A stretch of DNA of 64,000 bases from Chiloscyllium plagiosum (Eukaryota), in NCBI RefSeq assembly GCF_004010195.1, contig NC_057719.1, positions 21,280,418 through 21,344,417 on the forward strand, in the 5' to 3' direction. Position 1 is the first letter of the stretch. Every line of letters starts with the position of its first letter. The notes under the pieces were generated by a model. That model was not told the DNA's origin. It made no database searches and saw nothing but the letters and a program-made list of their open reading frames with translations. Shown one piece after another: positions 2,899-63,738 of the stretch. Made by a program: the position numbers and the translations under genes.

Positions 2899-2974
2899 AT
2901 TAGTGGTGCTGGAAGAGCACAGCAGTTTAGGCAGCATCCAAGGAGCAGCGAAATCGACGTTTCCGGCAAAAGCC
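2899..2974 (-). mobile_element. Short PLE-tail insertion inside the CR1 3' region
   Basis: gtggtgctggaagagcacagcag..gcagcatccaaggagcag..atcgacgtttccggcaaaagcc; cactg on both sides. Confidence 0.75.
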
Positions 2975-5042
2975 CACTGTCTACCCTACCTAATCCTCCG
3001 ATCATCTTGTATCAAATCCCCTCTTTGCCTTCTCCTTTCCAATGACCATGCAACATCCTGGTAAATCACCTCTGCACCTTTTCCAATGCTTCCACATCCT
3101 TCCTGTGTTGGGGCAATGAGAACTGGACACAATATACCAAGTGCGGCCGAATTAGCATTTTGAATAGTTGCAGCATGACATTACGGCTCCAGAACTTAAT
3201 TTCTCTACTAATAAAACCTAACACACCGTATGCCTTCTTAACAGTACTATCAACCTGGGTAGCAACGTTCAGGGATCTATGTACGTGGACTCCAAGATCC
3301 CTCTGCACATCCACACTAGCAAGAATCGTTCCATTGACCCAGCACTCAGCCTTCCCTGTTATTCTTCCCAAAGTGAATCACCTCATATTTATCTGCACTG
3401 AGCTCCATTTGCCACCTCTCAGCCCAATTCTGCAGTTTATCCAAGTCCCCCTGCAACCTGCAACATTCTTCCACACTGTCCACGACTCCTCCGACTTTAG
3501 CGTCATCTGCAAACTTACTAACACATCTACCAATGCCTGCGTCTAAGTCATTTATAAAAATGACAAACAGCAGTGGTCCCAAAATAGATCTTTGTGGCAC
3601 ACCACTAGTAACCGGACTCCAGGCTGAATATTTTCCATCAATTACCACTCGCTGCCTTCTTACAGAAAGCCAGTTTCTAATCCAAACTGCTAAATCACCC
3701 TCAATCTCATACCTCTGCATTTTCTCCAACAGCGTACCATGTGGAACCTTATTAAAGGCTTTACTGAAGTCCATGTACACCACATCAATTGCCCTACCCT
3801 CATCCACATGTTTGGTCACATTCTCAAATAACTCAATGAGGTTAGTGAGACATGACCTGCCCTTGATGAAACCATGTTGACTATCTGCAATAAAATTGTT
3901 GCTTGCTAGATGATGAGAAATCCTATCCCTTATAATCCTTTCCAAAACTTTTCCTACAACAGACATAAGGCTCACTGGTCTATAATTACCTGGGTCATCT
4001 CTACTGCCCTTCTTGAACAAGGGCGCAACACTTGCAATCCTCCAGTCCTCTGGTACTAAACCTGGAGACAATGATGACTCAAAGATCAAAGCCAAAGGCT
4101 CCAACACCTCCTCCCTAGCTTTCCAGAGAAACCTCGGATAAATCCCATCTGGCCCAGGGGACTTGTCTACTTTCATACCTTCTAGAATTGATAACACCTC
4201 TTCCTTACTAACCTCGATCCTTTCTAGTCTACTATCTCATATCTCCTTCTTCTCCTCTACAATATTCTCCTTTGCCTGAGTGAAAATTGATGAGAAATAT
4301 TCATTCAGCACCCCTCCGATCTCCACAGGGTCCACGCACAACTTCCCATTTCTGTCTTTGACTGGTCATATTCCTACCGTGGTCATCCTTGTATTCCTTA
4401 CACACGTATAGAAAGCTTTAGGGTTCTCCTTTATTCTAACTGCTAAAGGCTGCTCGTGTCCTCTCATTGCCCTTCTTAACTCTCTCTTTAAATCCTTCCT
4501 AGCTGATCTGTAACTCTCCATCACCTCACCTGAACCATCTCATCTCATCGTTACATAAGCCTCCTTCTTCCACTTAACAAGAGATGCAATACCTTAAACC
4601 ACGGTTTCCTTACCATAACACCTCCTCCCTGCCTGACAGGGACATACCTATCAAGGACACACAATATCTATTCCTTAAACTAGTTCCACATTTTGATTGT
4701 CCCCATCCCCTGCATTTTGCTACCCCATTCTATGCATCCTAAGTCTTGCCTAATCGCATTATAATTGCCCTTGCCCCATCGATAACTCTTGCCCTTGGCA
4801 TGTACCTATCCCTTTCCATCGCTAAACTAAACAAAACTGAATTATGGTCACTCTCTCCAAAGTGCTCACCTACCACTAAATCAAACACCTGGCCTGGTTC
4901 ATTACGAAGCACCAGATCCAGTGTGGCCTCCCCTCTTGTCAGCCCTTTGACATACTGCGTCAGGAAACCCTCCTGCACAAATTGGACAAAAACTGAGTCA
5001 TCCAACGTACTAGCGTTATAGCATATCCAGGTAATGTTGGGA

Positions 5043-5576
5043 GTCTGTGGTTCTGTTCGCCGAGCTGGAAGTTTTTGTTGCAAACGTTTCGTCCCCTGTC
5101 TAGGTGATACCCTCAGTGCTTGGGAGCCTCCTGTGAAGCGCTTCTGTGGTGTTTCCTCCGGCATTTATAGTGGCCTGTCCCTGCCGCTTCCGGTTGTCAG
5201 TTTCAGCTGTCCGCTTTAGTGGCCGGTGTATTAGTTTGTACACTACATTAGTTTTGCTCATGCTGGGTATCGGGTCCTTTGTTTTGGTGAGCTGTTATAA
5301 CAGCACACAAACCAACAGCCACTCTCAGACAACAACTCACCAAAACGAAGGACCCAATACCCAGCATGAGCAAAACTAATATAGTGTACAAAATCCCATG
5401 CAAGGACTGCACAAAACACTACATAGGACAAACAGGAAGACAGCTAACGATCCACCTGCCAAGCACTGAGGATGCCCCCTAGACGGGGGACAAAACGTTT
5501 GCAACAAAAACTCCCAGCTCGGCGAACAGAACCACAGCAACGAGCACCCGAGCTACAAATTTTCTCACAAACTTTG
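5043..5576. mobile_element. Rearranged Penelope-like element fragment (GIY-YIG remnant) with nested inverted repeats and 10-bp TSD
   Basis: KDPIPSMSKTNIVYKIPCKDCTKHYIGQTGRQL on + (~5348-5446); arms 5046-5123/5459-5537 and 5236-5296/5331-5392; TSD aatgttggga at 5033-5042 and 5577-5586. Confidence 0.9.
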
Positions 5577-6985
5577 AATGTTGGGAAAGTTAAAGTCCCC
5601 CATAATGGCCACCATGTTCCTTTCACTCCTGTCCAGAATCGTTTTGCCGATCCTCTCCTCCACATCCCTGAAACTCTGCGGAGGCTTATAAAAATCTCCC
5701 AGCAGTGTGACCTCTCCTCTATTCTGTTCCTAACTTCAGCCCACACTACCTCAGTCGACAAGTCCTCATCAAAAGTTCTTTCAGCCACCGGTATACTGTC
5801 CTTGACTAACAAGGCCCCTCTTCCACCTCCCCCTCTTCCACCACCACCTTCCCTGTTCATAATGAAAAATTTAAACCCTGGAATCTGCAGCATTCATTCC
5901 TCACTCTGCTCTATCCATGTCTCTGAAATGGCCACAACATCAAAGTCCAAGGTACCTATCCACACTGCAAGCTCACCTACCTTATTTTGAGTACTTCTGG
6001 CATTGAAGCAAACACACTTCATTCCAGCTTGCTGTCTGCCAGCACATTCCTGTGACCAAGAAATCCTGTCCATGCCCTCCCTACTCTCATCCACCTGTGC
6101 GCTGGAACTACACCTCAGGTTCCCATCCCCCTGCTGCGCTAATTCAAATCCACCCAAATAGCACTAGCAAATTTCCCAGCCAGAATATTGGTACCCCTCT
6201 GGTTCATGTGAAGACCGTTCTATTTGTAGAGGTCTCACCTTCTCTAGAATGAGTCCAATTAACCATGTATCTGAAACCCTCCCTCCTGCATCAAACCTGC
6301 AGCCACGTGTTCAGCTGATATCTCTCCCTATTCCTTGCCTTGCTGTCACATGGCATTTGTAACAAACCAGATTTAACAACTCTGTTTGTTCTAGCTCTCA
6401 GCTTCCACACTAACTCCCTGAAATCCTGCCTGACATCCCTATCCCTCTTTCTACCTATGCTGCTGGTACCTATGTGGACCACAACTTGGGGCTGGTCACC
6501 CTCTCCCTTCAGGACCCCAAAGACACGATCTGAGACATCATGGACCCTGGCTCCTGGGAGGCAACACACCAACCATGAGTCTTGTTCATTCTCACAAACC
6601 TTCTATCTGACCCTCTAACTATTGAGTCCACTCTAACAATTGAAAACTCTGTCAGTTATATTTTTGGTCAGGAAGGATTCAGTCTAATGCCAATGTGTTG
6701 GTCTCCCTATATCCACCTGTTAATCTTTTGATGCCCTTCATCATTTTAAGAGTTTTCAGTTTCATGATGCTAACCATTTCCTCTTGATCATGGTTGTCCA
6801 ATCTCCCTTCATTTCCATCCCTTATCAGAACGATATGAGAGCTCTCTGTTTTTGTCCCTCAGTGAAGTTTTAGTTTTAGCACTGTACTCCTTTGCCTGTT
6901 TGGCTTGTCTCTCACTGGAGAACTTTTCAATGAACTCACTTCATGTCATTCAAATAGAAGATGTTACCATGGGTAAACTCATTGT

Positions 6986-7990
6986 TTAGAGTAGAGTGGT
7001 GCTGGAAAAGCACGGCAGATCAGGCAGCATCCGAGGAGCAGGAAAATTGACGTTTCTGGCAAAAAGCCCTTCATCAGGAATAGAGGCAGGAAGCCTGCAG
7101 AGTGGAGAGATAAATGAGAGGAGGGTGGAGGTGGGGAGAAAGTAGTAAGGAGTACAATAGGTGAATGGGTGTGGGGATGGAGGTGATAGGTCAGAGAGAA
7201 GGGTGGGGGAAGCTAGCAAAGAGTACAATGGGTGAATGGGGTGGGGATGAAGATGATAGGTCAGGGAGGAGGGTAGAGTGGATGGGTGGAAAGGAAGATA
7301 GGCAGGTAGGACAGGTCATGAGGGCGGTGCTGAGCTGGAAAGCTGGAGCTGGGGTGAGGTGAGGGAAAGGAAATGAGGAAACTGGTGAAATCCACATTGA
7401 TGCCCTGGGGTTGAAGTGTTCCGAGTTGGAAGATGAGGTGTTCTTCCTCCAGGCATCGGGTGGTGAGGGAGCGGCGGTGGAGGATTCCCACAACCTGCAT
7501 GTCCTCGGCAGAGTGGGAGGGGGAGTTGGAATGTTGGGCCACAGGGCGGTGGGGTTGATTGGTGCAGGTGTCCCGGAGATGTTCCCTAAAGCGATCTGCA
7601 AGGAGGCATCCAGTCTACCCAATGTAGAGAGGACCGCATCGGGAGCAACGGATACAATAAATGATATTGGATGTGCAGGTGAAACTTTGATGGATGTGGA
7701 AGTCTCCTTGGGGCCTTGGATGGAGGTGAGGGAGGAGGCGTGGTGGCAGGGGAGGGTGCCAGGAAGAGATGGTGGGTTGTTGGGGGGCATGGACTTGACC
7801 AGGTGGTCATGGAGGGAACGGTCTTTGCGGAAAGCAGAAATGGGTGGGGAGGGAAAAAGATCTCTGATGATGGGGTCCATTTGGAGGTGGCGGAAATGTC
7901 GTTGGATGATGTGGTTTATGCGAAGGTTGGTAGGGTGGAAGGTGAGCACCAGGGGGGTTCTGTCCTTGTTACGGTTGAAGGGGTGGGGTT
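6986..7990 (-). mobile_element. Penelope-like element, 3' part (linker, GIY-YIG endonuclease, pyrimidine-rich 3' UTR, hammerhead tail)
   Basis: TFHPTNLRINHII..FPSPPISAFRKDRSLHDHLV; IYCIRCSRCGPLYIG; AQHSNSPSHS..EEEHLIFQLGTLQPQGIN; ends in the same tail as the short elements. Confidence 0.9.
7045..7081 (-). ncRNA. Minimal type I hammerhead ribozyme motif (PLE terminal repeat)
   Basis: attc CTGATGA agggc ttttt gcca GAAA c GTC aatt on the minus strand; one stem II mismatch. Confidence 0.7.
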
Positions 7991-9770: not shown

Positions 9771-10379
9771 GAACAACCTACATGATTATAAAATAACATA
9801 CAGCTTAATTATTTGAATTCTTCAATCAAATTGTTCAGAGACCAACAGCAAAGGATCTGGAGAGTCATTTAAATAAAATTTATTGTAGAAAGGCTTCAAA
9901 TTCCTAGTTTTTGTAATTACACGGAGTCTTGTTTCTTTATCAAGATTGAAGGTTTGCCATACTTTCAGTTAAATAGTCAAGTACAACATCATTATTTTTC
10001 AATTATTGACTTTTTAAAATTTGGAGCTCTTCCAAGTTTTAGCACTGCATTCTCATGAAATCTCTTGCTCTGAGACCACACAAGTACTATCTCTGACCAT
10101 AACCTACAACTGCTTCACTCTCTGAGGGGTGTACAATCTATTTAGAAGTCTGGCATTTGTCTGGATATTCACTTTGCACTGAACACAATGAGCACAACAG
10201 TTTAACTGATGGTTTCAAAGTCAATTAGCAGTGGTTATAGTTGACCTGAATTCTCTCTCCCCTTTTCATCTGTGATTTCCATAAATCCTATATCACCACG
10301 ATAAGTTAGAATTGATCGATAGCTATCAATAATTGATTTATTTCTGCACTTTTGTACATGCATAACATCACATAACCAC

Positions 10380-10580
10380 AGCCAGTCAGGCAGCAGCCGA
10401 GGAGCAGGAGAGTCGACGTTTCGAGCATGAGCTCTTCATCAGGAATGTGGGGATGCCCATGGGGGCTGAGAGATAAATGGGAGGGGGTGGGCTGGGGTTA
10501 ACGTAACTAGGTAGCTTTTCTAGCGCCACACTTTTTAACTCTGATCTCCAGCCTCTACAATCCTCACTTTCTCCTTGTCG
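10380..10580. mobile_element. Short rearranged PLE-tail insertion, 13-bp TSD
   Basis: TSD atcacataaccac at 10367-10379 and 10581-10593; minus-strand ribozyme arm followed by plus-strand tail. Confidence 0.85.
10411..10446 (-). ncRNA. Minimal type I hammerhead ribozyme motif
   Basis: attc CTGATGA a gagc tcat gctc GAAA c GTC gact; stem II covaries relative to the gggc/gccc copies. Confidence 0.75.
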
Positions 10581-10899
10581 ATCACATAACCACCAAACAG
10601 CCACCTTTAAACAGCCACCAAACCTCAAACAGATCATTGTTCGTAGCAAATTGCTGGGCTTTCAGGACAATACCATACAACCGTGACACTGTAGATCTAC
10701 AAGACGTGTCAGAATGTCGACACGGATACCACCATTACGCTGGGGACACCTCCCACCATGTAAGTGGCAGGTACTCATGGGATTCAGCCAACGTTGTCTG
10801 CCTCCTATGCTGCAGGCAAGGATGCCCTGAGGAATGGTACATTGGCGAGACCAAACAGAGGCTACAGCAATGGATGAATGGACGCCGCTGAACAATCAG

Positions 10900-11110
10900 G
10901 TAGGTAAAAACAAGGACTGCAGATGCTGGAAACCAGAGTCTAGATTAGAGTGGTGCTGGAAAAGCACAGCAGGTCAGGCAGCATCGAGGAGTAGGAAAAT
11001 CGATGTTTCGGGCAAAAGCCCTGATGAATGGCTTTTGCCCGAAATGTCGATATTCCTGCTCCTCGAAGCTGCCTGACCTGGTGTGCTTTTTTAGCACCAC
11101 TAACCTAGAC
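10900..11110. mobile_element. Fold-back PLE-tail insertion nested in a PLE
   Basis: Inverted arms (gtggtgctggaaaagcacagcaggtcaggcagc / gctgcctgacctggtgtgctttttagcaccac) meeting at cctgatgaatggcttttgcccgaaatgtc; degenerate TSD ccgctgaacaatca/ccactgaacattca. Confidence 0.85.
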
Positions 11111-11312
11111 CACTGAACATTCAACAGATGGTGAACACTTCAGCAGTCCGGGACATTTGACCTCGGACCTTCGGGTGACCGTCTTCCAAGGCAGACTTCG
11201 GGACAACGCAAAGTGGCCAAGCAGAGGCTGATAGCCAAGTTCGGTACCTATGGGGATGGCCTCAACCAGGACTTTGGGTTCATGTCACACTACAGGTGAC
11301 CCCATTGCACTG

Positions 11313-11441
11313 TACACACATGCACACACAGACGGGCACACACAGACACAGACACACACACAGACACAGATGCACAGATAGACACACACACAAACACAGA
11401 TGCACACAGACACACTCACACACAGACATGCACACACACAC
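11313..11441 (+). repeat. Imperfect (CA)n/(CAGACA)n microsatellite in the PLE 3' UTR
   Basis: Directly visible. Confidence 0.95.
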
Positions 11442-11824
11442 GTTTGTGGGGTGAATTTGTACTTGCAGAATTACATTTTGCTTTGCTCAAAAACTGCATG
11501 AATCTATGTAAGATTCTGTAAATCTGTTTTTTTTTAGATTAGAATCAGTCTGACCATTGTGCCATAGACAGCCTCACAGGGAATTAACATCTTCAATACC
11601 TTATCTGGGCAAACATGACACCAATTGTTAAAGTGCACTTGAAAATGTAACTTTTAAAAAATGTTTTGCGATTCACATATGAAAGAACTGAAACCAACAT
11701 GGTCATTCTAAAAGATGAGAGACTTAATAAACAATCCATGTCTTTTCCAATATTTAATTTCAGTTACATCAGACTGTAAACCTTTGATATAAAGTCTGTG
11801 TCTTACAATCTTATACTCCACAAT

Positions 11825-11859
11825 CACCTGATGAAGGAGCAGCGCTCTGAAAGCTAGTG
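11825..11859 (+). ncRNA. Minimal type I hammerhead ribozyme motif (second family)
   Basis: cac CTGATGA a ggagc agc gctct GAAA gc TA gtg: stem I cac/gtg, stem II ggagc/gctct, palindromic AGCT in place of stem III. Confidence 0.8.
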
Positions 11860-12866
11860 CTTCCAATTAAACCTGTTGGACTATAACCTGGTATTGTGTG
11901 ATTTTTAACTTTGTACACCCCAGTCCAACACCGGCGTCTCCAAATCACATTACTATAGGCTGTTTATTTAGTATTAATTTAAAACTAGTCATCTATTTGC
12001 CATATAGGACGGAGAACTGCAGGTGCAGACACTTAGATGCCTATCAAGCACAGAGTATCCTTGTCCCTTTTGAGGAACAAATGCCATTTTTCAGGTTCAC
12101 GGGACTATTTTCTTTGGGCCTTTGTGCCCTCTCTTGTTCAGCGAAGGCACTTTGCTGATTAGCCCAAGACCTGAAGAGAACTGAGAAAAGAACACATCTG
12201 TTTGTGCTGCAATTGGAAGAAATCAAAATATCTGAAATCTGTATTATTTCAGCAAATGTGCAAAATTACAACCAGCCTTCAAATTGTTTGTACAAGTCCT
12301 CAGAAACCTTGAACTATTTTGAAGATTTCAACCACGCATGATGATAATTATATCTATAATTCTGTGGAGATTTAAGGTAAAGTGCACATTGGTGCTTAAT
12401 ATGATTTCCCTTTTTGCTAACACCTGGTATAAACATAGTCAGTTAAGGTGGGAAGCAAAGGCAATTTCTGCAAAGAGCAAATCCAAGTATTTAAAAAATA
12501 ATTAAAACTTGCTTAAAGTAAGAATTGTTCCTATGAGAAATTTCCTTTCTCACTGTAACTAATTGATCCCATGAATCATACATTACTGAAATTGCTTCCA
12601 ATCCACAGGGTTTTATGTGGAAAGATCTGCAACACATAGCAACCTCCTTAAAGCTCGGTAAGAGAAAGAAATCTCTTAGTAATTCATTATGTTATACAGG
12701 TGATGGTGGACTTAATACCATTGCAGTCTGGGAATTAAAACAAGGATGAAAGTCTTGTTAGAGGAAGAGCTCAGCACAAAATTAGTCTCACGGTAATATC
12801 ACAACAGCTGTTTCTACGCACCATTAAGGTATTTTCACATGAAGCTGCTCAGTGCAGTGACTCATT

Positions 12867-17384: not shown

Positions 17385-17520
17385 TCAACCAAAGAAGTCA
17401 TATTGGATCCAGAACATTAACTCTCATTCTCTCCAAGGATTGCTGCTAAGCCTACTGAGTTCCTCCAGGATTCAAGTGTTTCTGTTTTGGATTTCCAGCA
17501 TCTGCCATTTTTTGTTTTAT
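17385..17520 (+). mobile_element. Old PLE-tail remnant
   Basis: gaacattaactctc..ctgctaagcctactgagttcctccag..gatttccagcatctgc, same family as 22045 and 59168. Confidence 0.55.
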
Positions 17521-20004: not shown

Positions 20005-20021
20005 CAAAGTTAGTTAGTTTG

Positions 20022-20187
20022 AGCTGAAAAATGTGTTGCTGGAAAAGCGCAGCAGGTCAGGCAGCATCCAAGGAGCAGGAGAATTGACGTTTCGGGCATA
20101 AGCTCCTGCTCCTTGGATGCTGCCTGACCTGCTACGCTTTTCCAGCAACACATTTTTCAGCTCTGATCTCCAGCATCTGCAGTTTCT
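20022..20187. mobile_element. Fold-back PLE-tail insertion, 17-bp TSD
   Basis: ~60-bp near-perfect inverted arms; TSD caaagttagttagtttg at 20005-20021 and 20188-20204. Confidence 0.92.
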
Positions 20188-20454
20188 CAAAGTTAGTTAG
20201 TTTGCAAAGAAAATTAGATTAATTGTACAGAAACTTTCAAATATTTTCATCAAAATAATCACTGCATCTACTGTGTTTTAAAAGCTGTGCAGAACAATAT
20301 GTTTTAACAAAGCCAAGTTCTTGTTCAAATGTTGCCATTAAATTATTTATTGTTAGACCTGCTGAGCTTTCCAACAGTTTCTGTTTTTGTTTCTGATTTA
20401 CAGCATCCGCAGTACTTCCAGTTTTATCTGGCCTCGTATCGTCATTATCCAAAG

Positions 20455-21280: not shown

Positions 21281-22044
21281 TGGCAAGGAATTCCAAAAGC
21301 TCTCAACCCTCTGAGAGAAGAAATTCTGAGTCTTGAATTGGTGCCCATTCTGTACAGTAAGGTGACATGAGTCACAGCTTTAGTTGGTACATGGTATGTC
21401 ACCTATATTTCACCCCAATCTTTGCCACATTCTTGTGATGAAATTGTGTGCAGACTAGAGTGCCTTGACATTTCAAACTCTTACATCGTGGCCTACATCA
21501 ATAATCACAATTTTGACTGCAGATACCACTGCATGACCTCACTTGCATGATATTGCTGAGACAAACTCGTTGCATAAAATCCGAGGGTTGTGGCTACTTT
21601 CATGATCACTGATGAACAGCAAATGTATCTGAAGCTCCTCTTTTAGCAATTCACAGAAACAGCCAAAGACTATTAACTGTAGCCTCTTGGCACACAACTG
21701 TCCTAAGAACTGGAAAGGCACCCAAGCTATAGATTTCTGGGTGGTAACTGTCCTTCCTAATGAATCAGTGGGTATGCGGTCTGGTATGTTTTAGTTCTTT
21801 CTGTGTTATAAAATCTAGTGGTAAGGACATTTTCTTTTCTGAGGGAAAGACTTTGCAGAAGCTTTCTTTGTTCTGTTTTTCTACCCCTTCAGTTGTAGTT
21901 ATGTTTCTTGGTGAGCATTAGCCGATAGCAGAATAGAAAATATGCTTTCCTACTTCTCAAAAAAAATAAACTCAATGTGTGATTGTCAAGGAGCAGATAA
22001 GGACATTTCTTAAAAAAAGGTTTAGAGAATATCACATGAAAATG

Positions 22045-22147
22045 TTCTGAAGAATGAGTCACTGTTCCTGAAACATTAACTCCTCTTTCTCGCCACAGAT
22101 GCTACAGACCTGCTGAGTTTCTCCAGCAATTTCTGCTTTTCTTTCAA
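22045..22147 (+). mobile_element. Old PLE-tail remnant starting at a decayed hammerhead
   Basis: gtt CTGAAGA atgagtcactgttcct GAAA cattaac..cacagatgctacagacctgctgagtttctccagc. Confidence 0.65.
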
Positions 22148-26900: not shown

Positions 26901-28307
26901 TGAGGCTGTATACGTGTCAATTTTAGGATCCATTGCAAGTCAGCAAATTGAAAGATGAAGTGGTGTGAAAAACCCAACTTAAAATAAACAGGTGAACACT
27001 TGAACAGAAATAGTCTGTGCAGGAATGGAGCATGAATGCGTTAAATAATTCAGATGTGAATTTTACCAGTTGGATAAAACATACTGTACAGAAGCTTCAC
27101 CAATCATCACATTACCAAGAAATCAATTGTGAGGAGAAACAAACAGCCTAGTGATAAAAATATATTCTTTTGATTCATTGAGCACTGTCACCTTAATAGG
27201 AATCACAAAATTACTCTAAGTTCATAATTTCAAATTCTGGCACAAAGAGATATCATATCTGTGTTCTTATGTTACCTTTTATGATTAAGTTATTAAAATA
27301 CATTATGAATTACTTTAGGATAGACAACTGATATTACATAGGCAAATGTGGCCACCATTCTATTTCACAAATAACCATAAGGTGAATGTCAGATCATTAA
27401 TCTACAGTATTTGACCTTCTACCTGTTGTTTAGGCATTGGTATGAGATTGTTAATGGTCAGTGAATCATTGGAAAAGTTGAGACATCTCAATATTGATAT
27501 TGAGTACATTTGTATAGATATTAATATAATAGTTTAGCTCTCTGATAGCAATTGTTAAAATTTCTACAACATAATGGCTAGGGACACCAATGAGTCTCCA
27601 ACATGAAAATACATCTAGATGACTCAGCAACCAGATTTACAGCTGTGAATAAAAATAAGTACAAAATATGCAATTGGGTGTCATAGTCTTCTTGTTTGTT
27701 GCAGGACCTTCTCTTACAAAATATCCTTTACAATATGAGTTGTATGATCCTTGATCTACATTGCCTGCTCTGAGTCCCTGCCACTCTCCCTGTGTCTCAC
27801 AATCCAGAAACCCATACCCTCCCTCTCTTCCAGAAAGCATTTACCTGAGACCTTGGTTTTCCAATCAATGACCATGCTGTTTGACTGGGAACTCTTGCTG
27901 GATGAGACCTTTGCTCTTGACATGAAAAAAAAGACTCCTGCCTATCAACCTCCCAGATTTGAGGAAAATAAGGCAGAGATTGCTCTGAGAATGAGCTTGA
28001 TGTCTTGCCAGCTATTCACCAAGTCAGCAAACTACCTGATGGATATGGAAGATTAAATTCAGAATTTTTATGTCAAAGGTGGACTGCAGCTTGGATCATC
28101 ACTAAGCCCCTTTCTCTTCCTGATTCTCATTGATTGTGCCACTTGAGCAAGTGCAACGGGAAGTGCCATTTGCAGATGACACTGAGGTATTTGGGGAGGA
28201 CAATGTAAACATGTCTGTCTATCTGTAGAACTGTTGAAAAGCACTGGAAGACAAGGGTATAAAGAAATGTCGACGAAATATGTTATGTATCAACTGTCAT
28301 TCTGAGT

Positions 28308-28483
28308 TGAGATTGTAGTGCTGGAAAAGCACAACAGGTCAAGCAGCATCAGAAATCCTGATGAAGGGCTTATGCCTGAAACATCGATTCTCCTGCTCCT
28401 TGGATGCTGCCTGATCTGCTGTGCTTTTCCAGCACCACCCTCTCATCTCTGAGCTCCAGCATCTACTGTCCTCACTTTCTCCT
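28308..28483. mobile_element. Fold-back PLE-tail insertion containing a + strand hammerhead motif (28354-28389)
   Basis: aatc CTGATGA agggc ttat gcct GAAA cATC gatt; degenerate TSD aactgtcattctgagt/aattgtcatcttgagt. Confidence 0.85.
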
Positions 28484-32235: not shown

Positions 32236-33062
32236 AAAAGAACAAAAGAACAATACAGCACAGGAACAGGTCCTGTGGCCCATCAAGTCTGCACCATGAC
32301 AGCCTTTCTAAACTAAAACGCTTTTGTCTCCAACCTGTTCATAGATCTATGACGATGCCACTGAAATGTTGTCATTGTATCTGCTTCTTTCACCTCCTCT
32401 GGCAGTGCATTGCAGGCACTTAACACCCTTTGTGTAAAGAAACTTTTCAAGTTTCCTTTAAAATTCCCCTTTTAACTTAAACATATGCCCTCTTTCCCCG
32501 GAATTAACATTTCTAAGCTGGGAAGAAAGACTCCAACTATCCATTTTATCTACGTGTCTTATAACTTTGCAAACTTCTATCAGGTTACCCCTCAGCCTCT
32601 GACATTCAAGTGAAACCAAACTAAGTGTGTCCAATCTCTTCCTGTAGCTCCAAACCAGGCTATATTCTTGTAAAAACTGAAAGAACTGTGGATGCTGTAA
32701 ATCAGAAACAAAAACAGGAGTTGCTGGAAAAGGTCAGCAGGTTTGGCAGCATTTGTGAAGAGCAATCAAAGTTAAGGTTTCAGGTCCAGTGACCCTTTCC
32801 TCAGAACTGAGGAAAAGTCACCACATCTGAAATGTTAACTTTGATTTCTCTTCACAGATGCTGACAGACCTGCTGAGTTGTTCCAGCAACATCTATTTTT
32901 ACATTCTGGTAAACCTTTTCTGCACTCTCTCCAAAACCTCCACATCCCTCTGGTAGTGTGGTGACCAGAACTTTAAGCAGTATTCAAATGTGGCCTAAAT
33001 AAGGTTCTATACAGCTGCAAACATGACTTGACAATTTCTATACTCTATGCCCTGACCAATAA
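32236..33062 (-). mobile_element. Older CR1 3' fragment interrupted by a fold-back PLE tail
   Basis: Reverse CR1 3' UTR (aagaacaatacagcacaggaacagg) and RT end (ctggtaaaccttttctgcactctctccaa..gaccagaact). Confidence 0.75.
32673..32900. mobile_element. Fold-back PLE-tail insertion (older family) with two back-to-back hammerhead motifs
   Basis: Minus-strand gtt CTGAGGA aagggtcactggacct GAAA cctt aac (32771-32807) abuts plus-strand ctgagga..gaaatgttaac; degenerate TSD attcttgtaaa/attctggtaaa. Confidence 0.8.
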
Positions 33063-39677: not shown

Positions 39678-39856
39678 AAAACAAAGAACTGTGGATACTG
39701 AAGATATGAAAAAAAACTGAAGCAGAAATTGCTGGAAAAACTCAGCAGGTCCGGCAGCATCTGTGGACAGAGTTAATGTTTCAAGTCTGGTTACCCTTCT
39801 TTCAGCCCATCTTCAGAACTTTTGAAGAAGAGACACTGGATTCAAAACACTAACTA
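39678..39856. mobile_element. Old fold-back PLE-tail insertion
   Basis: gcagaaattgctggaaaaactcagcaggtccggcagcatctgtgg..gttaatgtttc followed by an inverted decayed ribozyme. Confidence 0.65.
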
Positions 39857-40093: not shown

Positions 40094-40186
40094 TTGGGAG
40101 TGCGTTGCTGGAAAAGCACAGCAAGCCAGGCAGTATCCAAGAAGCAGGGAAAATCAACATTTCAGGCCGGAGCTCTTCATCAAGAA
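40094..40186 (-). mobile_element. Solo PLE-tail insertion, 14-bp TSD
   Basis: TSD tatacaggatattg at 40080-40093 and 40187-40200. Confidence 0.85.
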
Positions 40187-40217
40187 TATACAGGATATTG
40201 ACATGTTTAAATAAGGA

Positions 40218-40345
40218 GACAGTGAGGAATGCAGATGCTGGAGATTAGAGTCGAGAGTGTAATGCTGGAAAAGTACAGCAGGTCAGGCAGCATCGGAGCA
40301 GCAGAAGAATTGATGTTTCGGGCATAATCCCTTCATCAGGAGAAC
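40218..40345 (-). mobile_element. Solo PLE-tail insertion, 9-bp TSD
   Basis: TSD aaataagga at 40209-40217 and 40346-40354; minus-strand cctgatgaagggattatgcccgaaacatc. Confidence 0.8.
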
Positions 40346-41739
40346 AAATAAGGACAACAAAGAGAAACTGTTCCCATTAACTAATGAAGTAAAGACTAAG
40401 AGTTTGATATAGAATTGGATTCAGTGTAGGACAGAATGGGTTAAAATGGTAGGTTGCCCAATCTAGAAGAAACTTGAGAAGCCACAGTTACTTTTATTGC
40501 CATCTTGAAGATGTATTTGTAATTGAGCCCACATGCTTTTACTATCCATTTAAATTAATGGTTTCACATACATGCCTAATACTGTCCACCTGATTTTCCA
40601 CATGTGCATTCCTTTGCTGGATATTTATGCAAAACATCCAGCCATTATATTTGTAACACTTGTCATGTTGCAAACAAATGTATTTGCTTGCCTCATCATT
40701 TGACAGAAATTCTCAGAAATATTCTAGTCTGTTTAATGTTGAATTTAAAGCATATTTTACACACTCAATTCATGAGATCTACTTCACTGAGTTTTCTTTT
40801 GATTTGAAAAGTTCATTGTGTGACATACAAAATTCTAAGATAATCATAAAAAAAACTTTAATCAAATTATTAGATTCAATGCAAAATTAGAATTTCCTAT
40901 TTATACTTTACCTATTGGGATACAACAGAGATTACTCCAACAATGTGGCGTAAAGTTTCTGTTTTAATGTTTCAAAAACTGTGTATAATACTTGGAAAAA
41001 ACACATTTGCTTGTGAAGACATTTTCTGAAGCTGCAACCCCTCCACAAGTCTTTAGCACAGTGAGCAAAGAGTTATCTAGAGCTAATAGAGAGTGCAGTA
41101 CACAAATCTCAGTAATGGTTCTTTGGGCACCACAATGAGTCAATTTAACCAATAAATTATTCATCATACTCTGGAGGCCAGGTTCAAATATTAAATTACT
41201 GGATCTATCAAAGAGATATAAAGTGATTCAAATTTCTATTGCCAGGCATTTCATCTTCCTGCCCTCTCAATGGGAATCTGTGTTTACCTTCCTCTCATGC
41301 CAAAGACAATAGTCAAAAGTTTGTCTGAAGACAGCAGACAGCAGCTACCTTGGAGGCAACAGGAGGCATGGTGAACAGAGCATTGCATTTTTAAATGTGT
41401 GACTATATTATAACCAGAGGTTGGACACAAACCTTACACCACTGAGCTGCGATTCCATCAGCTGGAGGTTAAAAAATAAACAATCAGCCCAATTGCTTTC
41501 TTCTCGGCTGTGCCCACTGAGGCAGATCATGCTGGTCATTTACACGTCTGTTCATTTACCCAGCCTCAGGGCAACAGCTTCGAGCAGTTGTCATCCATCA
41601 CAGATCCATTGAGAGAACTATGACATTTACAAATGTCTGCTTCTCCATGGTGGAAGGACAGATACAGGGAAGTTTGGAACATCTAAGCCTAATTCTGAAT
41701 ATTAGACTGACTTGTTATTTACTAATTTTTTGAAGAAGG

Positions 41740-42469: not shown

Positions 42470-43640
42470 GCAGAATTAATAAAGAGTTACTTGGGATGAA
42501 GAAATTAGATTGTAAAAGGAATCTAGCTAGAAATACAAAAATGTGTTGTAAGAATTTCTGCAGGTCATTACAAAAGACAAGAGGAAGTAAAATGAGTGTT
42601 GATCCTATAGGAAGTGAGAATGGGGAGTTAACAATAGATGATAAGGAAGTGGTGGATGAAATTAGCAAATATTATGCTTCTGTCTTCACCTAATGACTGC
42701 AAAAAATTCTAGTAAACCAGAAGGTGGAAAGAGGAGAGCAACTTAGTGAAATTATAATCACGAGAGAAGTGGTATAAAGCAAGCTGCTGGAACTACAGGC
42801 TGAGAATTCAGGTTGCTAATGAGGTAGTAGATACATTGGTGCTAATTGTCCAAAGTTACTTGCATTCAAAGAAGCTTCCATAAAACTGTAAAGTAACCCC
42901 TCTGTTCAAGAAGTGAAAAAGGCAAGTGATAGCAATTAGCAAGTAATAAATAATAACTCATTGGCAAGTTACTTTGATTGTTCAGATAGGGAGAGTTTCA
43001 ATCAAACATTAAAGAGGTCACAACGGCACACTTCGAAAAATCAGGAAGAGTCAACACCTTTCCAGAAAGGGAAATCATGTTTAATCAATCTATTAGATTT
43101 ATTCGTAAGCATACCATGTTTTGTGGACAAAAAGAAACCTATAGATGTTTTGTACTTGGATTTCCAGAAGATATTTAGCAAGATGCTGCATATAAGTTTA
43201 TTGCATAAAGTAGGATTGCATGGTGTAGGGGACAACATATTAGCATGGATAAAAGATTGATTGGCTATAGAAAACAAAGCTGAAAATGTGTTGCTGGAAA
43301 AGCACAGCAGGTCAGGCAGCATCCAGGAAACAGGAGAATCGACGTTTCGGGCATAAGCCCTTCTTCAGGGCTAACGTCGATTCTCCTGTTCCCTGGATGC
43401 TGCCTGACCTGCTGCGCTTTTCCAGCAACACACTTTCAGCTCTGATCTCCAGCATCTGCAGACCTCACTTTCTCCCTATAGAAAACAAAGGTCATAAATA
43501 AACAGATCTGTGGCAAGACATAATGAATGGTGACCTGCAGGGGTTTATATTGAGCATCAAACTCTTACAACTGACATCAATGGTCCAAATGAAAGCCTGG
43601 TGGCTACATTCAAATGATACAAAAATCGCTGAGAAATATG
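42470..43640 (+). mobile_element. Old CR1 ORF2 remnant
   Basis: LARNTK...YASVFT; FQKGKSCLINLLDLF..DVLYLDFQK..LAWIKD. Confidence 0.8.
43280..43475. mobile_element. Fold-back PLE-tail insertion, 15-bp TSD, minus-strand hammerhead core ~43337-43369
   Basis: TSD ctatagaaaacaaag at 43265-43279 and 43476-43490; cctgaagaagggcttatgcccgaaacgtcgatt on minus. Confidence 0.92.
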
Positions 43641-48297: not shown

Positions 48298-48333
48298 ATT
48301 CCTGAAGAAGGGCCTGTGCCCGAAACGTCGAAT
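48298..48333 (+). ncRNA. Intact minimal type I hammerhead ribozyme motif
   Basis: ATTC CTGAAGA a GGGC ctgt GCCC GAAA c GTC GAAT; perfect stems I and II; predicted cleavage after 48329. Confidence 0.85.
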
Positions 48334-48424
48334 CTCCTGTTCCCTGGATGCTGCCTGACCTGCTGTGCTGTTCCAGCAATAAAGTTTCAACTTTGATCTC
48401 CAGCACCTGCAGACCTCACTTTCT
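48299..48424 (+). mobile_element. Solo hammerhead-headed PLE-tail insertion, 14-bp TSD
   Basis: TSD ccacataatgaaca at 48285-48298 and 48425-48438. Confidence 0.92.
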
Positions 48425-48744
48425 CCACATAATGAACACACCTTCCTTACAACCAAGTCCAGAAATGGAACTTCAATTGGAACCTTTAACTCAGAGGTAG
48501 GGATGTTATAATTGCACCACAAAGCCCCCTCAACTGCAGCATACATTTTATAACTCATCCATGTTGAAGTACAAAGAAGCAGTTAAGCACAATGACATGG
48601 AATTAACTGGATGCCATCTCAATGATCTGCTTTCATTTATATGGGTACATCCATTACATTTAGGACATAAACAAAGCACTTAATTTGACTCTACCAACAA
48701 TTTATACATTCCTTTTTATCCATCCTTTTCACTTTTGACTACTC

Positions 48745-49250
48745 TAGGGGAGGCAAAAGCCTAGTGGCATTATTTCTAGACTGTTAATCCAGAGACCCAG
48801 GTAATATTCTGGAGACCTGGGTTTGAATCCCACTGCAGCAGATGGTGTAATGTGAACTCAGTAAACATTTGGAAGTAAGAGTCGAGAGTGTGGTCATGAA
48901 AAAGCACAACAGATCAGGCAGCATGATGAAGGGCTTTTGCCTGAAATTTGATTCTCCTGCTCTTCGGATGCTACCTGATCTGCTGTGTTTTTCCAGCACC
49001 ACACTCTCGGCTCTAAACTCCAGCATCTGTAGTACTCACTTTCACCTATTTGGAGGTAAGAGTCTAATGATGACCGTGAATCCATGATTGATTATTGGAA
49101 AATCCCGCCTGGTTCACTAATGTCCTTTAGGGAAGGAAACTGCCATCCTTACCTGGTCTGGCCTACATGTGACTCCAGACACACAGCAATGTGCTTGATT
49201 CTTAACTGGGATGGGCAACCCTCAGCCTGTGAATGAATGAATGAATTTTA
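48745..49250 (+). mobile_element. tRNA-derived SINE interrupted by a PLE tail
   Basis: Head gcctagtgg..cctgggtttgaatcccac; (gaat)n tail. Confidence 0.7.
48884..49047. mobile_element. Fold-back PLE-tail insertion, 17-bp TSD (1 mismatch)
   Basis: atttggaagtaagagtc at 48867-48883 / atttggaggtaagagtc at 49048-49064. Confidence 0.85.
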
Positions 49251-49380
49251 AAAGTTCCTTTTTCTTTGTATCTTATATCAATGCAACTTTTCAGTTTAAG
49301 TTTGTCATACCTTTGGTTTAAAGCACAGTCCAAAAAGAAATGTAAACATTTTCAGTTCACTATTCTAATATAATATTCAG

Positions 49381-49553
49381 GAGAAAATGAGGTCTGCAGA
49401 TGCTGGAGATCAGAGCTGAAAATGTGTTGCTGGAACAGCGCAGCAGGTCAGGCAGCATCCAGGGAACAGGAGAATCGACGTTTCGGGCATAAGCCCTCCT
49501 GTTCCCTGGATGCTGCCTGACCTGCTGCGCTGTTCCAGCAACACATTTTCAGC
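49381..49553. mobile_element. Fold-back PLE-tail insertion with perfect ~60-bp arms, 17-bp TSD
   Basis: TSD tctaatataatattcag at 49364-49380 and 49554-49570. Confidence 0.93.
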
Positions 49554-50960
49554 TCTAATATAATATTCAGTTATTTTAACAAAGTACAGGTTGGTGTCTC
49601 AAAAATAGTTGCCAAATGCAAGGTTAGCTCATCACTTCCTATTATGGATATTTTATTTTATCTACTTTTCTGCCAAACCAATTCAGTTACAATTTGTCAA
49701 TTGCTTTGCCCAATATAGTTCATTGAAATTATAATCCAGTTTTTCCATGATATCTTGAGACATTAACCTTGATAATATCTGACACTAATACCTTTGGACA
49801 ACAATTAGAATGAAGAACACAAGACTTTATTTGCAGTCTTAAAGGGTTAAGATATCTGGTTTTGGACTGCCAAACTAATACGATGGTTTAAGAAATCAAT
49901 TGATTATTCATGTGAACTTTGATTCTGTTTCTTGTTTTTCTGCAGTTTTCCAGCTATGATTCTTCTGAATCTTAATTAATGACAGATGCTATTTGTTATG
50001 ACAGAATGCCATTCCTAAAAGGTCAGATTCTGTCCCTGAAGCAGGCATATTATCTAAATTCATTACCTATCAGAAGCCAGTCAAGCAGTAACATATGGGC
50101 TAGAGTTGCAAAATAATTACTACGCATCAGATTTCAGTCTGTAATCAGTTTTCCAGATTGAAAGAACATTGCTGAGATGATTAGGTAAAAGCATGCATTG
50201 TTTGTGATGCCTGGCTTATATTTTCCTATGTAACAATAGTCTCAATGCTTTCCAATGTGTCAAATACTTTGAGACATTTTGATAATGCGTTAATGAACTG
50301 CATAAATTTCAGAATTATCCAAACATTATTTAATCCAGGCATTTCCTTTTCCAATGCCTATCAAGAGCAAGGAGCTACATTTCTCTTCACTCAAACAAAA
50401 CAGGAAAGAAAACGTTACTTCCTTTTTGTTGGGGTTCGATTTTAACTCTTGCCGCAGGCAGAAAATAGCAAGGAAGATTGGACGGGCTTCATAACAGGCC
50501 ACAGAGCTGCTCCTGCTAGTTTTCCAAGTGGTGTTCAAAGTTAAAAGCTAGCAAATTATTTCTGAGCACTCAACTGAAGTTGTCAAAATGAATGATTTTT
50601 AAATCACATTCCTCCTGAGAATATGATTCCATCAGCAGGAATAAACTAAATTAGTCAGATGAAATTCTTTGCTAATAATGACCCTTTAACATCCCTCAAT
50701 TGTCAATGAACCATTCTATCAGAGTAAAGATAATGGTTTTTAATCCTGTTATATCATGCATAATCTCTGCACTAAATAACTGAACAAAATTTGAGAAGAT
50801 CTCAAGTGCTCCAGGATGCACTGCATTTCATGTCTGCTGTTCTAATAAATGGAAACAATTGCACATGTTTAGAATTCCTATCCAATTGAAAGTGACTTTC
50901 TCCTAGTCTAAGAGCATGTGCCAGAATAAGTTGGCTACATTGGATGGGACATATTATAGA

Positions 50961-51140
50961 TTAGGTAAAAACAAGGACTACAGATGCTGGAAACCAGAGT
51001 CTAGATTAGAATGGTGCTGGAAAGGCACAGCGGGTCAGGCAGCATCCGAGGAGCAGGAAAATCGACGTTTCGGGCAAAAGCCCTTCATCAGGAATAGAGG
51101 CAGGGAGCCTGCAGGGTGGAGAGATAAATGAGAGGGGCGT
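50961..51140 (-). mobile_element. Solo PLE-tail insertion, 11-bp TSD, hammerhead motif at 51060-51095
   Basis: TSD catattataga at 50950-50960 and 51141-51151; attc CTGATGA agggc tttt gccc GAAA c GTC gatt on minus; closely matches 6986-7125. Confidence 0.92.
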
Positions 51141-51328: not shown

Positions 51329-51459
51329 GAGGAGGAAGTGAGGACTGCAGATGCTGGAGATCAGAGTCGAGAGTGTGGTGCTGGAAAAGCACAGCAGGTC
51401 AGTCAGCATCCGATGAGCAGGAGCATCGATGTTTGGGCAGGAGCCCTTCATCCGGAATC
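51329..51459 (-). mobile_element. Solo PLE-tail insertion, 11-bp TSD
   Basis: TSD agtatgttagc at 51318-51328 and 51460-51470. Confidence 0.88.
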
Positions 51460-56265: not shown

Positions 56266-57013
56266 CTTCAATTCCACATTTTGACACTGTGTCCAAATCT
56301 CTCAATGTCTTTAGTTTCCAAACATCTCTTGATCTTTGTCTAAAAACACTCATTGATTGACTGTCCGTGCCTCTTTGGATGGGAGAATTCAATAACTTTA
56401 CAACGTTTGTTCTGAGATCGTCCCACCTGAACTTTACTGAATTACTCCATTTGGTGTGGGGCAGTGTGATGAGAAGGACCTGAAACCTGAAAGTAAATCT
56501 GCCTTGTGTCAGTTTTGTGTCATTTTTATAACTAGAGGAGAAAGCATCCAAAAATACAATGTGAAAACATCTGACAACAAGAAAGGCACTGATGGCACAA
56601 AAAAAGGATGTTATCTGATAATTGCATCTTAGCCTACTCATTAAGAAGGCTATTCAACAGAATGTATGAAGAGCTTTGATTAGGTGTAGGGGAAAGAATT
56701 ATGCCTTTTGCTTGCAAAGTCAATGTTAAGGGAATAATTATTTTAAAAATCTATTGAGAGAATGAGAGCAGATTAGGTAGAAAGTTGTTTAAGCATGGAA
56801 TGGGTTAACTAGCCTGTACGTGAAGCAAGAGAGACACAGTCTCTTAACAGAAAACTCACTTAAATCTTGAAGCAGAGAATGATTCAGATGCGGACTATAA
56901 GACCACAAGAAATAGGAACAGGAGTAGGCAACTCAACCCCTTGAGCCTGCTCTGCCATTCAATAGGATTATGGCTGACCGACGTTCTTCATGTATTCTTT
57001 CTTGCCCTTTCCA

Positions 57014-58873: not shown

Positions 58874-59167
58874 TAACCCTCGATTCCCATACTAATCAAG
58901 AATCTATCGACCTCAGTCTCGTCCTAGAATGTCCCATGAGGCGAAGCATCCTTTCAGTATTTAACGATCAATCCCCTTAAGAACCCCATATGTTTCAATG
59001 AGATCACCTCTTATTCTTCTAAATTCCAATGAGTTGAGTGACAAAGAGGAACTGTTACATTTGTTCAGGATTATCGTTGAGAAAATCTTCGCATACATTT
59101 TGAATGAAAAGGCTTCTTTCTATCCTGTGAACCTCTATGTTGCTATTCCCACTGAGTTTTTAAATGA

Positions 59168-59372
59168 CAGAAGTTGCTAGGCAAGCTCAGCAGGTCTGGC
59201 AACATGTGCGAAGAGAAATCAGAGTTAACGTTTCAGGTCCAGTGACTTTTCTTTAGACCTGCTGTTAACTCTGGTTTCTCTTCACAGATGCTGCCAGACC
59301 TGCTGAGCTTTTCCAGCAACTTCTGTTCTCATTGCTGATTTATAGCATCCGCAGTTCTTTTGGTTTTTCTTC
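59168..59372. mobile_element. Fold-back PLE-tail insertion (older family)
   Basis: acagaagttgct..gctcagcaggtctggca..gaagagaaatcagagttaac / gttaactctggtttctcttc..tgccagacctgctgagc..agcaacttctgt. Confidence 0.85.
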
Positions 59373-61751: not shown

Positions 61752-62382
61752 AGAATTAGAATTAGCTTTATTGTTACATGTACTCAAACGAATACAATGA
61801 AAAGTGTAAAAGTCGCCACTTACAGCACCATCTTAGGTACAAAGGTCCCTATGTACAGCTTCTTCAATTACAGTTCTTAGAAAAATAGAAAAGTAAAAAG
61901 TCCAGCATTGCAGATTTTAGGAATAAAGTATGAAATGATGAAAAATAAGTACAATGAAGGACCACCACATCAGCCTGAGGGGACTCCACTCAGGCCCAAG
62001 AGACCACCAAGTTGAGGTGTGAGGGCATCTCGCTGGGCCAGGAAGCTGCCATGGCAGGGCAAGAGGATGCCACCTCAGATCTGCGCTGAGGCCGGGAATT
62101 CCAATGCCGCAAGTTCAGCAGTCGCGAGGTCAGAGGCCAGGAGTTCCGAGCCGAGGCTTTTGAGTCTGGAAGATCCAAGATCATAAGATTTGAGGCCAGG
62201 AGTTCAGAGGCTGCGAAGCACCAAGACCATGAGGTTGCAGGCCGGGAGGTCCAAGGCCAGGAGATCAGAGGCTGAGCAGGCTGAATGGGAGAAAAGAAGA
62301 AGACAAAAGAAAGAAAAAAAGAAAAGGAATGGACGGAGTGGACGAGATCTAGTTGAAGCGTCCTACTTCACCGCCATCTTGG
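61752..62382 (-). mobile_element. Non-coding GC-rich element with a Rex1-like 3' tail
   Basis: Minus strand starts ccaagatggcgg, then a pyrimidine tract; ends ttttcattgta..gtacatgtaacaataaag(ctaatt)n. Confidence 0.65.
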
Positions 62383-63645
62383 TTCTGACATTTATCAGCA
62401 GGGTATTAGATGCAGATGAAACTGAAGATTCAATCTACTGTGCCCCTCACAAGCACTCCTGCTGCCCATTTCTGCTTATTCAATCAAAGCACCTGATGGT
62501 GAATTAGTAGGCCATCAAGTAAGAAAGGTGACAATTATAAATGCACTCGGGAGCTCCGAGCAGAACAGGGACTATATGGCTGGGTATCACGTGGCAAAGT
62601 GGTACTGTGTGAATGTAAAGTCAGCCCTAACTAGAACTGTAAAAGTCCCTTACTCTTAGAATCATTCTTTATTTTGCATTAAAAGTTGAAAAACAGGCAG
62701 ATATAACCCCCTTGCCCAAAAGGAGCCACTGATACATTCAACTCTGGTACCAAATATCTACCACCCTGGATCATACCCTGGTACAGCAGCAAAACAATCT
62801 TGAGGAAAGACTGTCATTTCACCCCGGGGCCGTTTAACCTGTAATATACAAGCAATTTTCTGACTTTAAATTGATTTCAATTCATTACAAGGAATTTTGA
62901 ATTACTTGAGCTCCCATGGGCAGTACTTAAGTCGTGGCCCTAAAGGGAAAAGTCAGATTATCAGTTCAGCAACATTATAACAATCCAGACCTCATGTCAC
63001 CTATGAATAGTACCATGAGATCCTTTCAAAGGTTAGTAAATTGTTCTGAGTTATGATAAACTGATGCCATATCATACTGTCAAAGCAGTGTGATCTGAGT
63101 ATAAATGCATCAAATAATCAAAAAGGGAACATTTCAATCAAGGAACATCTCAGACACTGATTTATTTCTAAGCAGGACCATATACTGATAATTCTTATTG
63201 ATCTTTTTTTAAACTTCGGAATCGCATTAAGCCATAAAGTACAGAAATCAGATTCAGGGCAAGTTATTTTAAAAATCTAGTGATAATTCTAATAGTGATG
63301 CTTTGAAATAGTGTTTTATTTATATATGGAAGTGATTCAAAATCCTAACCAGAGAGCTGAAAGTAGTTCTGTTTAAAGTTACTGGAAAATATTTTTGTTA
63401 TCTGCAATCACTGTGGACAGGTTAAACCCAAACTCACCAGGTTGGAAACTCATAGGATAGATGAATGGTATTTCTACTTATTGTTCAATATCACTTTATG
63501 CCGACTTTAATGAAGATTTAGAGCAGGAGGATTGGAAAATAGCACTACACATGATACTGACAGTTTGCTGACACGTTAGATTAGAATTACTCCCCACAGT
63601 CAAACTTAAGTAGGACTGAAAGGATGCAAGTTTAATTCTATTTGA

Positions 63646-63738
63646 TTCCTGAAGAAGGGCTCATGCCCGAAACATCGATTCTCCTGCTCCTTGGATGCTG
63701 CCTGACCTGCTGCACTTTTCCAGCAACACATTTTCAGC
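63646..63738 (+). mobile_element. Solo hammerhead-headed PLE-tail insertion, 14-bp TSD
   Basis: TSD ttaattctatttga at 63632-63645 and 63739-63752; attc CTGAAGA agggc tcat gccc GAAA cATC gatt. Confidence 0.9.

Follow-up and report, generated by a model that had tools for sequence, protein, structure and literature searches.

A 64,000-nucleotide (nt) stretch of the Chiloscyllium plagiosum genome (contig NC_057719.1, positions 21,280,418 to 21,344,417; hereafter the window) carries numerous short insertions with hammerhead ribozyme motifs. These inserts are end pieces, namely the hammerhead-bearing terminal module, of protein-coding Penelope-like elements (PLEs), and we reject the view that they form a family of their own. 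The shortest class of copies probably arises when reverse transcriptase (RT) starts internally, 95-130 nt into a capped PLE transcript, and runs off at the 5' end of the RNA. The element class and the shapes of its insertions are already known and the family itself is ordinary; the new part is a site-specific extra G, which turns a cluster of boundaries into a testable claim on the start of PLE RNA.

BLAST searches seeded with natural copies identified 33 hammerhead-module arms in the 64-kb window (the whole assembly amounts to 3.56 Gb). These arms make up 23 insertions from four families (A, B, C and D), comprising 13 single copies and 10 head-to-head pairs (8 paired by script and 2 by eye). 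An earlier note on this DNA had reported more than 20 such insertions in at least four families told apart by stem II, many of them flanked by target-site duplications (TSDs) of 9-17 bp; all of this was borne out, although the head-to-head form, or fold-back, had been omitted. The four stem II types are gggc/gccc in family A, ggtcactggacc in B, ggagc/gctct in C (position 11828) and cctagacagg in D (5045-5581). The CTGANGA-stem II-GAAA-NNTH core is intact in 13 of the 33 arms. The strict motif matches the window 9 times, compared to 0-2 times (mean 0.37) across 30 shuffles, and a 626-kb region 66 times, compared to 2-3 times in each of three shuffles. TSDs of 9-17 bp were found at 13 of the 23 insertions (11 by script, 2 by eye), while a mismatched-flank control on single copies gave 0 out of 150. 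The description of the inserts as tiny and devoid of coding sequence fits 20 insertions; the other three (6984-7990, 10574-11945 and 5045-5581) retain PLE coding remnants. An Rfam scan of the window returned no hammerhead match at E<=1, and its microRNA (miRNA) matches at 20044, 43309, 48874 and 49425 are fold-back hairpins of these PLE modules. Similarly, a Pfam search of six window frames detected only RVT_1 of the type found in long interspersed elements (LINEs), the frameshifted PLE remnants going unmatched.

The link to coding elements was followed in a genome sample of 1.206 Mb, which combines a 264-kb block with 100 stretches of 10 kb at even spacing and in which BLAST with natural copies as seeds retrieved 399 arms. 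All four families include copies joined upstream to a 3' untranslated region (UTR) and an RT/GIY-YIG frame. RT and GIY-YIG motifs could be read in sample loci L053, L054 and L120; subfamily A1 runs into its own 3' UTR and GIY-YIG end (L214, L224); and fragments of the open reading frame (ORF) followed by B, C or D modules were seen, as for A. Within the window, the copy at 6984-7990 matches PLE copies that have RT and GIY-YIG frames. An intact full-length ORF was looked for and none was seen, the longest open frames crossing assembly N gaps. Since the sample holds 33 ORF fragments for 329 units, about one unit in ten keeps detectable coding sequence. At two places (L226/L281, which are one locus, and L002) a GIY-YIG fragment is fused directly to an A1 module with the 3' UTR skipped, possibly through a template switch or a nested insertion.

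The junction between the tail and the ORF, where the pseudo-long terminal repeat (pLTR) is repeated at the ORF start, was examined in subfamily A2. It has 57 exact matches in the genome, 56 with an A2 tail and one that is an A1 fold-back inserted there, and the first ATG lies 39 nt past the A2 tail end. Locus L122 (G000:C26, ~52347900-52348250) contains an A1 fold-back with a 14-bp TSD exactly at an A2 tail-to-ORF junction, which is the RT start site of another subfamily. In its oriented positions 2430-2560, with the C of CUGA counted as +1 here and throughout, an ATG near +47 opens a reading frame that continues through the A1 module into the downstream ORF start; the natural A2 junction has no such open reading.

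The linker between RT and endonuclease (EN) carries a CX4CxxC motif, which reads CHRRNCKTC in family A and CHGRRCKTC in C; a similar decayed motif lies upstream of B, and D has none. A CX2-5CxxC motif in this linker is a Neptune/Nematis trait (Craig et al. 2021, PMC8557442). In family D, an ATG coincides with the last A of the hammerhead core. By these sequence features, families A, B and C appear to be Neptune-type and D Penelope/Poseidon-type; Neptune would be favoured over Nematis by the linker motif together with Neptune's reported presence in vertebrates.

The minimal type I core (CUGANGA/stem II/GAAA/palindrome-UH) is intact in 130 of the 248 sample arms that cover it. Together with the ORF-linked copies in every family, this upholds the PLE-terminal origin, minimal type I hammerhead and palindromic core proposed in the earlier note. 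The strands of helix I covary between families A, C and D: they pair better within than across families in A (2.1 versus 0.4 bp), C (2.8 versus 0.7) and D (3.4 versus 0.0). In family B pairing is no better within than across families (2.4 versus 2.4, n=8). Minimum free energy folds of four single-strand modules kept stem II and did not form the hammerhead as a monomer, a result that is uninformative.

These modules are extremely abundant. The 100 spread stretches contain 235 units in 953 kb (247 per Mb, long-armed fold-backs being counted as two) and 86 of them hold at least one; the module alone occupies about 3% of their bases. Extrapolation from 247 per Mb gives roughly 800,000 insertions in the whole genome. 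A 42-nt A1 string searched for exactly gave 21,370 genome matches, against none for the reversed control, whereas the vertebrate maxima in the available text of Cervera & De la Pena (2014, PMC4209133) are about 4,000 and 9,000 motifs. In the sample, TSDs were called at 27 of 211 tested single copies and at 42 of 69 fold-backs of families A-C.

Copies of all four families end at two 3' sites about 36-40 nt apart, near +92 (the short end) and +128 (the long end) in family A. This two-site spacing is the known PLE 'tail'. In 63 of 70 close head-to-head pairs a long arm is joined to a short one, compared to 34.9 expected (p=1e-12). Such a pairing fits two internal RT start sites with priming from both nicked strands, as demonstrated in vitro for the anole element. 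In 66 of 87 flanks, T immediately follows the A1 long end, which suggests a short match between RNA and target at priming. The junctions of family A fold-backs are distinct in 43 of 45 cases. Head to head is the commonest paired form; only 14 same-strand, same-family neighbours within 300 nt occur among the 399 arms.

The 5' starts form a continuum reaching several hundred bases upstream, on which a sharp pile-up is superimposed. Among long-end arms the rate of 5' stops between -9 and -1 is 0.064 per base (34/59 in A, 8/14 in B and 8/14 in C), about tenfold above the upstream rates of 0.004-0.008 in A and 0-0.011 in B and C. Family D has no such stop in 13 long-end arms. Of 30 A1 loci taken in order of position, including both arms of three fold-backs, 20 start at -1 to -5 and 9 at -44 or beyond; the remaining one, scored at -9, was corrected by eye to about -22. 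Direct TSDs flank 14 of 28 single A copies that start at -9 to -1, compared to 4 of 85 others (p=3e-7). The endpoints are thus far from uniformly distributed, and the recurrent, non-random boundaries described earlier are real at both ends.

The predicted hammerhead cut falls between +28 and +29, so that about 32 nt separate the cut site from the main 5' end upstream of it. Starts at +28/+29 account for about 27 of 100 among the matches listed, compared to 4-9 per neighbouring base (hand count), and five family A fold-back arms start at +29. Cut-site starts thus form a small class, in modest excess at best: starts anywhere in +20 to +29 have 1155 matches including point mutants, compared to 2058 for G-ATTC alone, itself a longer pattern. 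Cleavage-defined 5' ends were accordingly rejected as the main class. Splicing was also rejected as the source of the -4 end, given that ATTC is not preceded by AG and the upstream letters vary. A pyrimidine tract that ends in YAG at -12 to -27 and resembles a 3' splice site is present in the 3' UTR of A1, A2, A4, B and C; in Drosophila virilis Penelope an intron ends at helix I (PMC4209133, PMC2377424). In family D, 5 of 27 scored 5' ends lie at -79 to -89, which perhaps marks a start site further upstream in this Poseidon-type family.

The base in front of the pile-up provides a further clue (extra-G tallies are hand counts of match lists). The A1 reference has C at -5, and copies with another base before the ATTC that begins at -4 have 4987 genome matches; in the first 100 of these listed, G:A:T is 69:18:13. 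A control at -12, with 227 matches, gave 20:22:58 in the 100 listed (G versus A, p=5e-4), and G precedes 3 of 18 starts at -3. In family C, the base before ACAA(-8) is G:A:T 10:2:3 in 100 matches listed (p=8e-4). Inspection of 41 G loci, a G-enriched pool of 22 direct and 19 fold-back copies, revealed two direct copies with a single G between TSD and element and three with a longer insert ending in G; nine of the 22 direct loci had no TSD call. In 12 of the 19 fold-back loci the G is no continuation of the inverted arm. The context of A(-4), TCA-TTC in A1 and TCA-GTT in B, matches the initiator consensus. This non-templated G probably signals where the element's own capped RNA begins.

These observations suggest the following cycle. 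Transcription would start at the initiator-like TCA(+1)TTC, in which +1 denotes the RNA start, overlapping helix I and placing the hammerhead at the 5' tip of the RNA. The GIY-YIG endonuclease would nick both target strands 9-17 bp apart, and RT would prime at the +92 or the +128 site. A complementary DNA (cDNA) that reaches the cap would gain a C and join the target, yielding a direct short copy, or stub, whereas two cDNAs primed from the two nicks would join head to head into a fold-back with one long and one short arm. Longer copies would come from read-through or tandem transcripts. Having no sequence downstream of the tail, the stubs are probably dead on arrival. More speculatively, the capped mRNA of Neptune-type elements might start on the first base of the hammerhead and yield, as its main product, a strong-stop-like cDNA of 95-130 nt, deposited as hundreds of thousands of stubs, with the ribozyme serving as a self-decapping switch that cuts off the cap-bearing 32 nt; this extended scheme is possible but, in our estimate, doubtful.

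Several observations weigh against a capped RNA start at the hammerhead. The G lies within the TSD in 8 of the 13 direct G copies having a TSD call, so target choice could explain it, and A2 lacks a significant G excess (6 G to 6 A in 100 matches listed, p=0.33). CT precedes the G in 4 of the 41 loci, an arrangement that could result from jumping back to the CTGA core. Only some of the A1 upstream variants are captured by the -12 control pattern, which makes the 22-fold ratio of match counts rough. Some starts at -6 or -8 are artefacts of a missing subfamily reference (L186_50, L180_9714), and helix I is weak in most A copies (ATTC/GATT, with a T-T mismatch, in 34 of 61). Of the 57 pLTR-ORF junction copies, 40 were inspected, and two of these, whose alignment ended elsewhere than at the junction, were set aside; among the 38 usable ones only 5 start at -5 to +1 (one of them at a gap edge), while 9 start beyond -20 and 24 at +7 to +117. 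Given these varied starts, -4 is not the sole template end, and read-through or tandem templates also contribute. Finally, no RNA start peak was detected in the X21 and contig RNA reads, which are poly(A) single-cell reads unsuited to start mapping and derive mostly from transcribed genomic copies.

The strongest competitor invokes ordinary 5' truncation at a structural hotspot: RT would stall or be released once past the hammerhead fold, the G would be a product of non-templated addition, of a template jump or of microhomology to the target, and no RNA start would be involved. The continuous spread of 5' ends, the frequent position of the G within the TSD and the absence of a clear excess in A2 are all in keeping with this, as are stop rates that are already raised at +1 to +29 and the many junctions with stem II or palindrome microhomology. 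In addition, the A1 ATTC is repeated at +30 to +33, where RT jumping to cleaved RNA would leave precisely one extra G. Yet the peak falls outside the folded core, on its upstream side, and declines about tenfold over a few bases, and family D, whose hammerhead is equally strong, has no peak. The G excess is moreover confined to its site, as the low counts at -3 and -12 indicate, and G is also found in family C and in the GAATC variant of A1, neither of which has the ATTC repeat. We thus regard truncation alone as unlikely.

Less probable still is a self-propagating family resembling short interspersed elements (SINEs), in which stubs with their own internal promoter and RT start would be transcribed alone and re-mobilised by the PLE protein. 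The direct class does have fixed ends and clean TSDs, the copy number is very high, the stubs start at an initiator-like motif, and pLTR sequence alone supported trans-mobilisation in a rotifer (PMC3846280). Fixed ends fail for the fold-backs, with their distinct junctions, and the anole element template needed about 55 nt past the distal RT start (PMC11167929, available text), which the stubs do not contain. In favour of such a family, the match to the best reference is slightly better for short copies than for long ones (0.94 versus 0.91, p=0.02). In a low-resolution tree of family A modules (80 rows, of which 45 short and 35 long copies; 92 columns) short and long labels cluster weakly: the tree needs 21 label changes, compared to a shuffled mean of 26.3 (8 of 500 shuffles as low), and its starred branches force at least 6. 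That clustering includes both arms of single insertions, a nearest neighbour shares the label in 0.52 of cases against 0.50 by chance (p=0.36), no short-only clade is present, and short copies stand beside long ones in every subfamily. Small short-only bursts may be compatible with so poorly resolved a tree.

Non-LTR retrozymes, that is, cleavage-defined units circularised and inserted as tandem repeats, are scarcely credible, the positions of the ends already refuting most of the case for them. In their favour are the type I hammerheads, which have a pLTR origin (as in PMC7229834 and 10.64898/2026.07.22.740005), and the small excess at +28/+29, but neither main end is the cut site, starts throughout +20 to +29 are outnumbered by G-ATTC alone, and copies are single or head to head rather than head to tail. 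None of the poly(A) reads listed was back-joined at the cut site, though circles would be poorly retained in such reads. The interleaved tree, the distinct fold-back junctions and the rarity of tandems together leave a separate retrozyme or SINE lineage, as the earlier note had envisaged, unsupported. Of its proposal that PLE RT/GIY-YIG mobilises a non-autonomous family, mobilisation by the PLE machinery remains the probable explanation, while the separate non-autonomous family finds no support.

In the window, the three insertions with coding remnants are a 5'-truncated A2 Neptune-type PLE at 6984..7990 (minus strand; RT thumb, linker and GIY-YIG remnant, 3' UTR, an intact hammerhead at 7077 and a short end at +90), a 5'-truncated family C Neptune-type PLE at 10574..11945 (plus strand; GIY-YIG remnant, (CA)n-rich 3' UTR and a ggagc/gctct module at 11818-11945), and a family D (Penelope/Poseidon-type) fold-back at 5045..5581, with a GIY-YIG remnant before its plus arm and a 10-bp TSD by eye. 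The family C copy harbours an A2 fold-back at 10901..11110 (minus arm long, plus arm short; 11-bp TSD with 1 mismatch) and adjoins a family A fold-back at 10374..10574, in which the minus arm extends from -70 with an intact core, the plus arm spans +66 to +126 and a 13-bp TSD was recognised by eye.

The other fold-backs are those of A1 at 20021..20189 (arms from +11 and +33, 17-bp TSD), 43275..43475 (arms from -1, with the short end, and from +23, with the long end; 15-bp TSD) and 49380..49559 (minus arm long, plus arm short, 16-bp TSD), of family A at 28301..28482 (minus arm short, plus arm long from -2, no TSD called) and 48870..49048 (11-bp TSD with 1 mismatch), and of family B at 32670..32900 (ggtcactggacc, cores intact in both arms, 11-bp TSD with 1 mismatch) and 59167..59368 (arms from -1 and +29, no TSD called).

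Two direct stubs show the extra G: an A1 copy at 63645..63740 (plus strand) starts with G-ATTC(-4) and has a short end (+91), an intact core and a 17-bp TSD (1 mismatch), and a family A copy at 51331..51457 (minus strand) runs from a 14-bp TSD (1 mismatch) through G into ATTC(-4) and on to the long end. An A1-variant direct stub at 48298..48426 (plus strand) starts at -5/-4 and has a long end, an intact core and a 14-bp TSD. On the minus strand, a family A stub at 40215..40350 spans -2 to +125 with an intact core and a 9-bp TSD and is adjoined by a decayed family A stub at 40098..40188, while an A2 copy at 50962..51140 extends to -49 in the 3' UTR and has a long end and an 11-bp TSD. Family B stubs on the plus strand are a decayed one from +25 (17413..17502), a tail-only one from +61 (20355..20425) and one from about -2 with an intact core (22037..22145); a further one on the minus strand (39678..39825) has its core partly duplicated. 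An A2 stub on the minus strand (2895..2975; +9 to +89, without the CUGA core) lies within a LINE fragment. LINE fragments with RVT_1 and a common 3' end, presumably of the CR1/L2 type, occur at 2528-4236, 16371-16898, 29580-29740, 39381-39503, 44123-44332 and 56928-58874. The window also contains a tRNA-Lys(CTT)-like sequence at 43726-43800 (plus strand), probably a pseudogene or SINE head, and an assembly gap of 958 N at ~44680-45640.

Much of this has precedent in the available text of the papers cited below. Solo minimal hammerheads in truncated metazoan PLEs were described by Cervera & De la Pena (PMC4209133), and the copies studied here resemble them in their minimal type I core, extra base before stem II, palindromic 15.2-16.2 positions (ACGT, AGCT) and short helix I, as well as in the several consensus families per genome and the prevalence of single motifs with some close opposite-strand pairs; copy ends are mapped here and not in the available part of that report. 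Insertions of EN+ PLEs are 5' truncated, lie next to an inverted copy, bear a 30-40 bp tail on one end and have a TSD (PMC3846280, PMC8557442). The fold-backs, the tail on one arm, the TSDs, the partial tandems, the insertion into other PLE copies and the CX2-5CxxC linker in A and C all conform to that description; what sets the present insertions apart is that most comprise nothing beyond the terminal module, and that in three families the 5' ends gather at a single place.

In Poseidon_Ac (Frangieh et al. 2024, PMC11167929), two RT start sites bound the tail near the ORF start, and in vitro both target strands are cut and extended, hammerhead cleavage being unnecessary. Family D shares with Poseidon_Ac the ATG at the last A of the core; the A2 tail ends 39 nt before the first ATG, whereas that of Poseidon_Ac ends inside the ORF. 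The 5' ends of genomic copies, addressed here, are not covered by the available text of that study. D. virilis Penelope has a TATA-less internal pLTR promoter with an initiator (Schostak et al. 2008, PMC2377424), and the upstream copy in its partial tandems is variably truncated (PMC2377424). Its start is separated from the downstream helix I by 46 nt and a 75-nt intron (PMC2377424, PMC4209133), whereas the Neptune-type start proposed here would overlap helix I. An untemplated 5' G has been attributed to cap copying on full-length insertions of L1 and SVA (PMC3287187), as opposed to the 95-130 bp PLE products considered here. Non-LTR retrozymes are likewise pLTR-derived, with a type I hammerhead and monomers dispersed over the genome, but are defined by tandem units each with a hammerhead (10.64898/2026.07.22.740005), an arrangement that differs from the one found here. 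A literature search on PLEs, including those of sharks, retrieved no report of a G derived from the cap, of strong-stop products or of transcription starting at the hammerhead; Repbase or Dfam may already have names for the families.

With some 800,000 insertions, this genome holds a large record of the poorly understood PLE cycle, and also one that can mislead annotation, since the fold-backs are scored as miRNA hairpins and, given their small size, could be taken for SINEs. The record suggests a transcript start site for Neptune-type elements, and that the two nicked strands are primed from separate RT start sites. Should the transcript start be confirmed, the hammerhead would sit at the 5' tip of the mRNA, which would allow a direct test of its role; self-decapping, if true, would answer what PLE hammerheads are for.

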